Positions 19,555 to 54,416 of a DNA stretch of 64,000 bases are shown here, one piece after another. The notes beneath the pieces are model-generated. The model was not told where the DNA came from, made no database searches, and saw only the letters and a program-made list of their open reading frames with translations. Location: NCBI RefSeq assembly GCF_055900595.2, contig NZ_CM148325.1, one strand, 5' to 3'. The position numbers and the translations under genes were made by a program. Each line of letters opens with the position of its first letter. Position 1 is the first letter of the stretch.

Positions 19555-19704
19555 TGTTGACTCCGAGTGCTGGTTATCTATCCAGTGTAACAGGTGGGGA
19601 GCGATTAAAAAAGAGGCGGGTCGATGACAAAGGTTACACCATGAGACGTGCTACGCCTGTCAGGCCTATTCGACTCCTGCAATGTATTGAATTTGCATAG
19701 TTTT

Positions 19705-43510: not shown

Positions 43511-43582
43511 AAACATTGACTTTTATCGCCGTAGCCTTTTCAATAAAGGTCTTTTGAAAAGTACCAAAAGGTAACGCAAGCA

Positions 43583-43627
43583 ATGAATGCTGCTATTTTC
43601 CGCTTCTTTTTTTACTTTAGCACCTGA
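43583..43627 (+). CDS. pheM: pheST attenuator leader peptide
   Basis: ATG AAT GCT GCT ATT TTC CGC TTC TTT TTT TAC TTT AGC ACC TGA = [14 protein letters not shown], five Phe codons. Confidence 0.9.
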
Positions 43628-43674
43628 CTCCAGGAGGCTAGCGCGTGAGAAGAGAAACGGAAAACAGCGCCTGA

Positions 43675-43700
43675 AAGCCTCCCAGTGGAGGCTTTTTTTG
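43675..43700 (+). terminator. pheST attenuator terminator
   Basis: GCCTCCcagtGGAGGC followed by T7. Confidence 0.85.
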
Positions 43701-43868
43701 TATGCGCGTTTTGAAAAATAAAAAGCCTGTCTCATCAGGCGTAATTGTCGCAGCCAGTCTGGGCACGGCCAGCGCGGAGAAACCGGAGCGTACTTAAGTA
43801 CGTGAGGATTTCGAGCACTGCCCGGGACCAAAATGGCAAGTAAAATAGCCTGATGGGATAGGCTCTAA

Positions 43869-47300: not shown

Positions 47301-47600
47301 ATGGCGCTTACAAAAGCTGAAATGTCAGAATATCTGTTTGATAAGCTTGGGCTTAGCAAGCGGGATGCCAAAGAACTGGTTGAACTGTTTTTCGAAGAGA
47401 TCCGTCGAGCTCTGGAAAACGGCGAACAGGTGAAACTCTCTGGTTTTGGTAACTTCGATCTGCGTGATAAGAATCAACGCCCGGGACGTAACCCGAAAAC
47501 GGGCGAGGATATTCCCATTACAGCACGGCGCGTGGTGACCTTCAGACCCGGGCAGAAGTTAAAAAGCCGGGTCGAAAACGCTTCGCCCAAAGACGAGTAA
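47301..47600 (+). CDS. ihfA: integration host factor alpha subunit
   Basis: 99 aa, [22 protein letters not shown]. Confidence 0.97.
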
Positions 47601-47612
47601 TCTGATCTAACT

Positions 47613-47643
47613 AAAAAGGCCGCTCTGCGGCCTTTTTTCTTTT
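47613..47643 (+). terminator. intrinsic terminator after ihfA
   Basis: GGCCGCtctGCGGCC followed by T6. Confidence 0.85.
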
Positions 47644-47700
47644 CACTGTCGAAGAGTCACCGTAAAATCAACGCTATGACACTTCAGCAGAACGGATACC

Positions 47701-50830: not shown

Positions 50831-51544
50831 ATGAAGATTTTTTTGGAGAATCTTTATCATTCTGATTGCTATTTCCTGCCGATAAGAGATAATCAGCAAG
50901 ACCTTGTCGGCGTTGAGTTAATTACCCATTTCTCCAGTGAAGATGGTACGGTTCGTATACCGACGAGTCGGGTTATAGCGCAACTTACCGAGGAGCAACA
51001 TTGGCAATTATTTTCTGAGCAGTTGGAATTGCTAAAATCATGCCAACACTTTTTTATTCAACATAAACTCTTTGCCTGTCTTAATTTAACCCCACAAGTG
51101 GCTACTTTATTATTAGACAGGGATAATTACGCGGGCGAACTATTAAAATATCCGTTTATTGAACTGTTGATTAATGAGAATTACCCGCATCTCGATGAAG
51201 GAAAAGATAATCGCGATCTTTTGTCCTTATCGCAAATGTATCCCCTTGTGTTAGGTAATTTGGGCGCAGGCAATAGCACAATGAAAGCGGTTTTTGATGG
51301 TCTTTTCACCCGCGTCATGCTGGATAAAAGTTTTATTCAGCAACAAATCACGCATCGCTCCTTCGAACCGTTTATTCGTGCGATCCAGGCGCAAATTTCC
51401 CCATGTTGCAATTGCATCATCGCGGGGGGCATTGATACGCCAGAAATAATGGCACAGATTATCCCCTTTGATTTCCATGCTCTCCAGGGATGCCTGTGGC
51501 CTGCCGTTCCTGTAAATCAGATAACGACGTTGGTTCAGCGATAA
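50831..51544 (+). CDS. ydiV: degenerate-EAL-domain anti-FlhD4C2 factor
   Basis: 237 aa, synteny. Confidence 0.9.
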   Translation: MKIFLENLYHSDCYFLPIRDNQQDLVGVELITHFSSEDGTVRIPTSRVIAQLTEEQHWQLFSEQLELLKSCQHFFIQHKLFACLNLTPQVATLLLDRDNYAGELLKYPFIELLINENYPHLDEGKDNRDLLSLSQMYPLVLGNLGAGNSTMKAVFDGLFTRVMLDKSFIQQQITHRSFEPFIRAIQAQISPCCNCIIAGGIDTPEIMAQIIPFDFHALQGCLWPAVPVNQITTLVQR

Positions 51545-51567: not shown

Positions 51568-53043
<1,476 letters not shown>

Positions 53044-53046
53044 AGG

Positions 53047-53238
53047 CTACTTGGTCAACAGCAGCTTGCCAGCCTGAGTTTTACGAAGCAGATATTCTTG
53101 CCCGTCATGATCGATAATCAGTTTGCCATCCGGACCTAACAGTGTCTGGCTGGTAATTCGCCGAATGGGCTGCGGGGAGGCGGTCTTGTGATTGGCATCC
53201 GTTTCAGGCGTGAGTTTTCTGCTATCCGTATAACGCAT
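53047..53238 (-). CDS. ydiE: HemP-like small protein YdiE
   Basis: 63 aa from ATG 53236..53238 ([18 protein letters not shown]...); Fur box upstream. Confidence 0.75.
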
Positions 53239-53260
53239 AAAAATTAATAATAATTGATAT

Positions 53261-53279
53261 AACAATGATTCTTATTATC
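53261..53279 (-). promoter_or_regulatory. Fur box upstream of ydiE
   Basis: Minus-strand GATAATAAGAATCATTGTT matches 15 of 19 positions of GATAATGATAATCATTATC. Confidence 0.6.
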
Positions 53280-53369
53280 AATATTCTGGCGGACCAGAGC
53301 AAGCAGTAATTTGTTGAGAAGACAACAAGTTGCGCAGAAATGCCCATTCCGTCAGGAATGGGCACGCAT

Positions 53370-54416
53370 TCAGAAGCGGGTATCAACCGCAGAGGCGAGT
53401 TTTTCGACCAGGCGTTCGGTATCTTCCCAGCCCAGACACGGGTCGGTAATCGATTGACCGTAAGTGAGCGGCTGACCGCCGACGATTTTTTGCGTTCCTT
53501 CGCGCAGGAAACTTTCCGCCATAATTCCAGCAATCGCCGTAGAGCCATTGCGGATTTGCTGACAAATATCCTCACAAACTTCTAACTGGCGACGGTGCTG
53601 CTTCTGGCAGTTACCGTGGCTGAAATCCACCACCAGATGTTCAGGTAAATCAAACTCGTGCAACGTATCGCAGGCAGCGGCGATATCATCCGCATGGTAA
53701 TTCGGCTTTTTGCCGCCACGCATAATAATGTGGCCATACGGATTGCCGCTGGTCTGATAGATGGTCATTTGACCGTTTTTGTCAGGCGAGAGGAACATAT
53801 GGCTGGCGCGGGCAGCGCGGATAGCATCCACGGCAATTCGCGTGTTGCCATCGGTACCATTTTTAAAACCTACCGGACAAGAGAGTGCCGAAGCCATTTC
53901 ACGGTGGATCTGGCTTTCGGTAGTACGTGCGCCAATCGCGCCCCAACTGATTAAATCAGCAATAAACTGACCGGTCACCATATCGAGGAACTCAGTCGCG
54001 GTAGGGACGCCCAGCTCATTGACCTGTAAAAGTAATTTGCGCGCCAGCTCCAGACCGTGATTTACCCGGTAGCTGCCGTTTAAATCCGGATCGGAGATTA
54101 GCCCTTTCCAGCCGACAACAGTTCGTGGTTTTTCAAAATAGGTGCGCATTACGATTTCCAGCCGTGACTGGTACTGGTTGCGCAGCGACTGCAGACGGGT
54201 GGCGTACTCCATTGCAGCGGTGAGATCGTGGATCGAGCAGGGGCCAATAATGACCAACAGTCGCTTATCTTCACCATTCAGTATTTTTTCAATTCTGCGG
54301 CGGGAGTCGGTGACATGGGTGGCGACGCCAGGCGTTACGGGATACCGTAGCGCGAGTTCGGCGGGCGTTACCAGGCTCTCAATACGCGCAGTACGGAGTT
54401 CGTCAGTTCTGTTCAT
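53370..54416 (-). CDS. aroH: DAHP synthase, Trp-sensitive
   Basis: 348 aa; hairpin GCCCATTCCgtcaGGAATGGGC just downstream. Confidence 0.95.
   Translation of the reverse strand: MNRTDELRTARIESLVTPAELALRYPVTPGVATHVTDSRRRIEKILNGEDKRLLVIIGPCSIHDLTAAMEYATRLQSLRNQYQSRLEIVMRTYFEKPRTVVGWKGLISDPDLNGSYRVNHGLELARKLLLQVNELGVPTATEFLDMVTGQFIADLISWGAIGARTTESQIHREMASALSCPVGFKNGTDGNTRIAVDAIRAARASHMFLSPDKNGQMTIYQTSGNPYGHIIMRGGKKPNYHADDIAAACDTLHEFDLPEHLVVDFSHGNCQKQHRRQLEVCEDICQQIRNGSTAIAGIMAESFLREGTQKIVGGQPLTYGQSITDPCLGWEDTERLVEKLASAVDTRF

Follow-up and report, generated by a model that had tools for sequence, protein, structure and literature searches.

The 19-bp sequence at positions 53261-53279 of the window (the whole 64,000-nucleotide stretch analysed here) is in our view the core Fur operator of the small hemP-like gene ydiE, acting by Fe2+-Fur repression, and we put the probability of this reading at about 95%. 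The Fur site of ydiE is already known, having been predicted, mapped by ChIP-exo and linked to demonstrated Fur repression of the gene in published work. The box found here is supported by its position and rarity, by its conservation over three genera, and by the overlap with a published binding peak. The features of the control region are listed in Table 1.

Table 1. Features of the ydiE control region and their positions in the window.
Feature	Position	Strand	Basis or remark
Core 19-bp Fur box GATAATAAGAATCATTGTT	53261..53279	-	15/19 to consensus; shuffles; conservation; overlap with published ChIP-exo peaks
Second Fur-like 19-mer AATATTGATAATAAGAATC	53267..53285	-	14/19; overlaps the box, shifted 6 bp upstream
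Conserved AT-rich block ATTATTATTAAT	53243..53254	-	between box and ATG; ATTATT..TAA invariant in three genera
ydiE (hemP) CDS, 63 aa + stop	53047..53238	-	ORF; Pfam hemP; regulated gene
Likely aroH terminator hairpin GCCCAUUCC-UGAC-GGAAUGGGC, then AUUUCU	53342..53363	-	folding
Candidate -35 TTGCTC	53297..53302	-	predicted; exactly 17 bp upstream of GATAAT
Candidate -10 GATAAT	53274..53279	-	predicted; first Fur box hexamer; invariant in 10/10 sequences
Alternative sigma-70 candidate TTGATA (53276-53281)-16 bp-TATCAA (53254-53259)	53254..53281	-	PMC3946193

The box was scored against the 19-bp Fur consensus GATAATGATAATCATTATC and found to be nearly palindromic, with 15 of 19 positions matching on the minus strand, which encodes ydiE, and 14 of 19 on the plus strand, where it reads AACAATGATTCTTATTATC. 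The 15-of-19 match of the original prediction is thus true of the ydiE strand only, and the box does lie where it was placed, about 23 bp upstream of the small open reading frame, with a counted gap of 22 bp to the ydiE ATG (53238-53236, minus strand). Two overlapping 7-1-7 units, TGATAAT-A-AGAATCA and TAAGAAT-C-ATTGTTA, compose the box. It was the sole match of at least 15/19 on either strand of the whole 64-kb window. When the whole window was shuffled 200 times with dinucleotides preserved, such matches appeared at a mean of 0.205 per window, and at least one was present in 15.5% of the shuffles. For the 131-bp aroH-ydiE spacer, the probability of a maximum of at least 15 was 0.0014 (5000 shuffles), and it was 0.0076 when only the 57-bp AT-rich core of the spacer (23% GC) was shuffled. 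A match of this quality is only mildly unusual across the window but very unusual directly before the gene.

Further Fur-like elements were found on both sides of the box. The second 19-mer is displaced by 6 bp, as would be expected in a cluster of Fur sites, and the AT-rich block between the box and the ATG contains the hexamers ATTATT and ATTAAT in phase with the reverse half of the box. The 19-mers within the block reach only 11-12/19 against the Fur consensus; judged from the letters, the block is probably the promoter-distal part of an extended Fur array. From the block through the 6-bp-shifted upstream match, the elements span ~43 bp. In the information-theory scan for Fur sites by Chen et al. 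2007, the ydiE cluster consisted of 10 overlapping walkers over 53 bp, with a strongest site of 20.1 bits, and walkers were mostly 6 bases apart (PMC2189734). The centre of that cluster, at -35 from the ydiE start, corresponds to position ~53273 of the window, between the centres of both 19-mers. The ~43-bp array agrees with the published cluster, which suggests the binding of several Fur dimers.

Binding of Fur to this site was reported by Gao et al. 2023, who performed Fur ChIP-exo in nine E. coli strains and assigned an intergenic peak to ydiE in MG1655 and W3110 (PMC10164565). In NC_007779.1, where the identical box occupies 1791286-1791304, the W3110 peak (1791295-1791307) overlaps it; the peak sequence, AATCATTGTTATA, consists of the 3' half of the box and three further bases. 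The W3110 mapping is exact, as the locus tags of NC_007779.1 agree with those of PMC10164565. The MG1655 peak (1787605-1787617, in old coordinates) lies at about -32 to -20 from the ydiE ATG, an offset that was derived from the '-35' entry of PMC2189734, the published coordinates predating NC_000913.3.

Expression data from the same strains showed that ydiE is strongly derepressed upon loss of fur. The log2 fold changes of Δfur over wild type in RNA-seq were 2.87 in MG1655, 8.14 in W3110, and 2.2-7.1 in six other strains, and BL21 was the sole exception with -1.10, so that eight of the nine strains were positive (PMC10164565). ydiE was included in the core Fur regulon of the nine strains and was a member of the Fur-1 and Fur-2 iModulons (PMC10164565). 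In Salmonella Typhimurium, ydiE was 7.4-fold up in Δfur, with the predicted site ATAATAATAATCATTGTG (Troxell et al. 2011, PMC3212961); the same paper credits earlier work, including Tsolis et al. 1995, with Fur sites upstream of S. Typhimurium ydiE and Y. enterocolitica hemP, and gives Rcs as a further regulator of ydiE in Salmonella. The COLOMBOS paper (PMC3136457) likewise lists a predicted Fur site for ydiE (citing Panina 2001 or Meysman 2010) and Fe2+-Fur-dependent transcription of the gene (citing McHugh 2003). The binding and expression data come from E. coli strains other than that of the window, and the box is identical in K-12. All these support the iron-repressed expression that had been predicted for ydiE: the suggested check, Fur ChIP or expression data, is available as ChIP-exo peaks in MG1655 and W3110 and as increased ydiE expression in 8 of 9 Δfur strains, and the notion of a ydiE free of Fur-dependent regulation is contradicted by these data, with BL21 as the one exception.

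We considered whether a damaged box could be the cause of the BL21 value, and rejected this, as the BL21 box is intact. In BL21(DE3) (NC_012971.2, ~1734000), a single T-to-A change was found 4 nt upstream of the box, equivalent to position 53283 of the window (CATAATATTGATAAT to CATAAAATTGATAAT); the changed base belongs both to the overlapping 14/19 site and to the spacer of the conserved candidate promoter.

A separate Fur-like sequence was observed in the first codons of ydiV (ATG 50831), where GAGAATCTTTATCATTCTG at 50846-50869 matches the Fur consensus at 14 of 19 positions on the minus strand. A second Fur ChIP-exo peak of the published set, assigned to ydiU/ydiV (W3110 1793696-1793708, positions 50857-50869 of the window), falls on this sequence. 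In W3110 Δfur, ydiU was up (log2FC 1.6) and ydiV down (-0.6), and the effects were much weaker in MG1655.

To follow the conservation of the site, ydiE orthologues were sought by a degenerate-codon DNA scan for an 11-residue YdiE motif, with one genome per species. The scan returned 10 loci, all from Escherichia, Salmonella and Citrobacter apart from one 417-bp contig labelled Streptomyces. The source loci represent E. coli, two other Escherichia lineages, E. whittamii, two Salmonella enterica subspecies and three Citrobacter species. In two of the loci the sequence ended before the upstream region was covered, and the footprint alignment was built from 8 usable upstream regions together with the window and K-12, covering the three genera. 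The Streptomyces-labelled contig (NZ_POTZ01001146.1, a low-coverage sequence of Streptomyces sp. NTH33) encodes an E. coli-type YdiE in which 1 of the 61 recovered residues differs from the YdiE of the window, and is almost certainly E. coli contamination of the Streptomyces assembly.

Comparison of the 10 aligned sequences showed that 17 of the 19 box columns are invariant, compared with 18/86 in the spacer upstream of the box (mostly the terminator stem and the CTTG motif), 10/22 between the box and the ATG, and 15/81 over codons 1-27 of ydiE. Much of YdiE itself thus shows lower conservation than its operator. With AATAAT as their central hexamer, the Salmonella and Citrobacter boxes reach 16/19; that of E. 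coli, with AAGAAT, is one match weaker, at 15/19.

Of 5426 complete E. coli genomes, 5400 contain the 79 bp in which the box lies. A 601-bp stretch around the site is matched at 100% identity by strain Z0117EC0005 and several other complete chromosomes of the species, and at 95-99% by nearly every one of the 5426 genomes. From the aroH stop to the ydiE start (138 bases, comprising the spacer and the first 7 nt of ydiE), 2 bases differ from K-12, and both lie before the box, in the spacer. BL21 and LF82, a B2 strain, likewise have SNPs only outside the box. One of the about 5400 complete genomes, that of E. coli F11 (NZ_CM184318.1, 1636-2441), carries an IS5-family element within the Fur box, at the equivalent of position ~53271. 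The box is split there into GATAATAAG and TAAGAATCATTGTT on the two sides of the element, with an apparent TAAG target duplication, and the transposase is annotated as frameshifted. The F11 insertion is a natural disruption of the ydiE operator and promoter.

Two candidate promoters were recognised around the box, from manual reading, conservation and a published SELEX table; a simple sigma-70 scan of 52900-53500 gave no promoter at its thresholds. In the TTGCTC-17-GATAAT candidate, CTTG, GATAAT and their spacing are invariant in 10/10 sequences, and the C after CTTG is kept in 9/10 (T in C. sedlakii), while the 17-bp spacer diverges in sequence without indels up to the box. By sequence, GATAAT is the best conserved -10 candidate. 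The TTGATA-16-TATCAA candidate was proposed by Shimada et al. 2014, whose RpoD genomic SELEX found holoenzyme binding and a constitutive promoter in the aroH>ydiE spacer, also HNS-flagged (PMC3946193); its TATCAA is not conserved in Salmonella or Citrobacter, and is TATAAA in LF82. The Fur box fills the -35 and spacer region of this second candidate, and it overlaps both candidate promoters as assigned by hexamer match and conservation, which points to classical promoter occlusion by Fe2+-Fur. Placing the -10 in the ATTATTATTAAT block would make the mRNA near-leaderless; this was set aside for want of an acceptable -35 at 16-18 bp, and is kept as a possibility only.

The simplest competing explanation is that the box is a chance match in an AT-rich promoter region and that any iron regulation of ydiE is indirect. 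The 15.5% of whole-window shuffles with at least one such match and the low GC content of the spacer core would be in keeping with it, as would the fact that consensus counting weighs all mismatches alike, for which it has been criticised (PMC2189734). We regard this as very improbable, because the probability is only 0.0014 to 0.008 for the spacer itself, 17/19 positions are invariant over three genera between diverging flanks, the box carries ChIP-exo peaks in two K-12 strains, and ydiE is derepressed in 8/9 Δfur strains. A chance AT-rich match is essentially refuted by conservation, ChIP-exo and expression together. The same invariance bears on a reading of the AT-rich block as mainly a nucleoid-protein (H-NS) site or the promoter itself (-10, UP-like), with Fur playing a minor part. 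The spacer has been flagged both as H-NS-associated and as a constitutive promoter bound by RpoD holoenzyme (PMC3946193), the first hexamer of the box, GATAAT, is also the best -10 candidate, and Rcs has been named as another ydiE regulator in Salmonella (PMC3212961). Promoter hexamers alone, however, leave the invariance of the whole 19 bp, including the AATCATTGT half, unaccounted for, and the derepression in Δfur is large, up to a log2FC of 8 (up to 280-fold). A merely minor part for Fur is accordingly very unlikely; the H-NS and promoter roles are compatible with Fur binding and may well coexist with it. From the AT-rich spacer and the H-NS SELEX flag, other AT-binding proteins probably share the region.

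It was also considered that the box might act on another target, either an antisense transcript running on the plus strand into the 3' end of aroH or readthrough from aroH. The near-palindromic site does score 14/19 when read on the plus strand, and its distance from the aroH stop codon is 91 bp. Against such a target, aroH barely changed in Δfur (log2FC -0.48 in MG1655 and +0.54 in W3110, PMC10164565) compared with ydiE (2.87 and 8.14), aroH is separated from the box by its stable terminator hairpin, and the plus strand downstream of the box is without an ORF or Rfam family. This is the least probable of the alternatives, and hardly credible.

Under the preferred reading, direct repression of ydiE by Fe2+-Fur, the 19-bp box would be bound by Fe2+-Fur dimers when iron is sufficient. 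Fur would probably also occupy the overlapping and adjacent hexamer repeats, forming an array of roughly 40-50 bp (about 53243-53285). Such an array would cover the core promoter and exclude RNA polymerase, keeping ydiE off; if GATAAT serves as the -10, the box would extend over the expected start site. At low iron, Fur would lose Fe2+ and release the DNA, and ydiE would be transcribed together with the iron-acquisition regulon. We infer the exact promoter, the transcription start site, how many Fur dimers bind, and that repression works by occlusion.

The regulated gene belongs to the HemP family by sequence. The 63-residue YdiE protein, which ends in GKLLLTK, matches Pfam hemP (PF10636) with E=3.7e-15 and 55.9 bits (cut-off 25), its residues 27-63 corresponding to profile positions 1-37 of 37. 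Its RefSeq name is 'hemin uptake protein HemP', ydiE b1705 in K-12, and the gene is also annotated in the identical strain Z0117EC0005. The HemP-like character that had been noticed for the small open reading frame is borne out by both the profile match and the annotation.

The surroundings of the gene are those of the K-12 38.5-min region in reverse orientation, with thrS-infC-rpmI-rplT-pheMST-ihfA-btuCED-nlpC-ydiV-selO on the plus strand followed by ydiE(hemP)-aroH-ppsR on the minus strand. The neighbours of ydiE are aroH, ppsR, selO and ydiV, and no heme transport genes (TonB-dependent receptor, hmu, chu or hem) were found within 12 kb on either side. ydiE is a monocistronic, hemP-like gene of E. 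coli, a HemP family member by sequence and an orphan by context. Three Rfam families were matched at gathering level elsewhere in the window, namely Phe_leader, the pheM attenuator (43577-43701, plus strand, 74.4 bits), the enterobacterial sRNA STnc540 (47542-47700, plus strand, 69.3 bits), and the sRNA ES036/CssrF (19662-19704, minus strand, 42.9 bits); these are ordinary features of the E. coli region.

The control region is likely limited on its upstream side by the aroH terminator. The hairpin has a minimum free energy of -21.4 kcal/mol (z = -4.33), and none of 200 shuffles was as stable; its GGGATGGGC is kept in other genera. A simple terminator scan of 52900-53500 did not call this hairpin because its T run is short, and the assignment rests on folding. 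On the other side of the gene, selO (plus strand, stop 53041-53043) and ydiE (minus strand, stop 53047-53049) converge with 3 bp between the stop codons. Any terminator of either gene must therefore sit within the coding sequence of the other, and transcription of derepressed ydiE would run antisense into selO.

No Shine-Dalgarno-like sequence was found before the ydiE ATG (ATTAATTTTTATG; 53239-53254, ATTATTATTAATTTTTATG), nor in any of the three genera. The position of the start codon shifts while the AT-rich block stays in place, with Salmonella arizonae and C. koseri beginning 9 nt further in. These sequences suggest that translation of ydiE may begin in an AU-rich context, in an SD-independent or near-leaderless manner. 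It is conceivable, if unlikely, that a multi-dimer Fur array of 40-50 bp and the distal ATTATTATTAAT block, conserved together with an SD-less, AU-rich leader, provide a second level of ydiE control, through near-leaderless or S1-dependent translation or through interplay with H-NS; as part of the same speculation, YdiE itself might respond to heme or iron and regulate receptor genes elsewhere in E. coli at the post-transcriptional level, in the manner of ChuP and HmuP from other bacteria.

Classical Fur operators that overlap their promoters are found at iucA/aerobactin, fepA-fes, fhuF and tonB. The ydiE site resembles them in its 19-bp inverted-repeat core, its extra hexamers at 6-bp offsets, and its overlap with the -10 and -35 elements, which are candidate hexamers here. 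Footprinted Fur regions span 30-103 bp (PMC2189734); the ydiE site is known from ChIP-exo, expression and prediction.

The closest known system is the Fur cluster of K-12 ydiE (b1705), which is the same locus with an identical box, an identical distance to the ATG and the same gene order, aroH-ydiE-selO. There is no difference of substance from the K-12 site, and the window comes from another E. coli lineage. The orthologous site of Salmonella enterica ydiE (STM1346), ATAATAATAATCATTGTG, matches at 16 of 18 positions and lies before the orthologous hemP-like gene, which differs from that of E. coli in its annotated start codon.

Outside these genera, HemP-family genes are found in a similar arrangement. 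In Y. enterocolitica hemPRSTUV, C. violaceum chuPRSTUV and S. maltophilia hemP-hemA, as at ydiE, a Fur box directly precedes the small HemP-family gene, whose expression rises under iron limitation, and Fur-boxed hemP, hmuP or chuP genes are also present in Burkholderia and at the Yersinia hmu locus. Unlike these heads of heme-uptake operons, ydiE is an orphan between aroH and the convergent selO, with no adjacent TonB-dependent heme receptor or hmu/chu genes. HemP-family proteins have been described as heme-binding activators of heme receptor genes, reportedly acting at the transcriptional level in B. multivorans and B. japonicum and at the post-transcriptional level in E. meliloti and C. violaceum; B. 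multivorans HemP and C. violaceum ChuP are the members with published heme binding or activation of heme receptor genes.

The value of the present analysis lies mainly in correct annotation, in that the ydiE promoter of the window is the standard, iron-repressed one. The gene is among the small set of core Fur regulon genes common to the nine E. coli strains tested. The tight conservation of the operator in Escherichia, Salmonella and Citrobacter indicates strong selection on the iron control of YdiE, which is a modest argument for the study of YdiE itself. The interest rests with the gene rather than with the box, in the role of an orphan, strongly Fur-repressed HemP-like protein that is unlinked to a heme-uptake operon.
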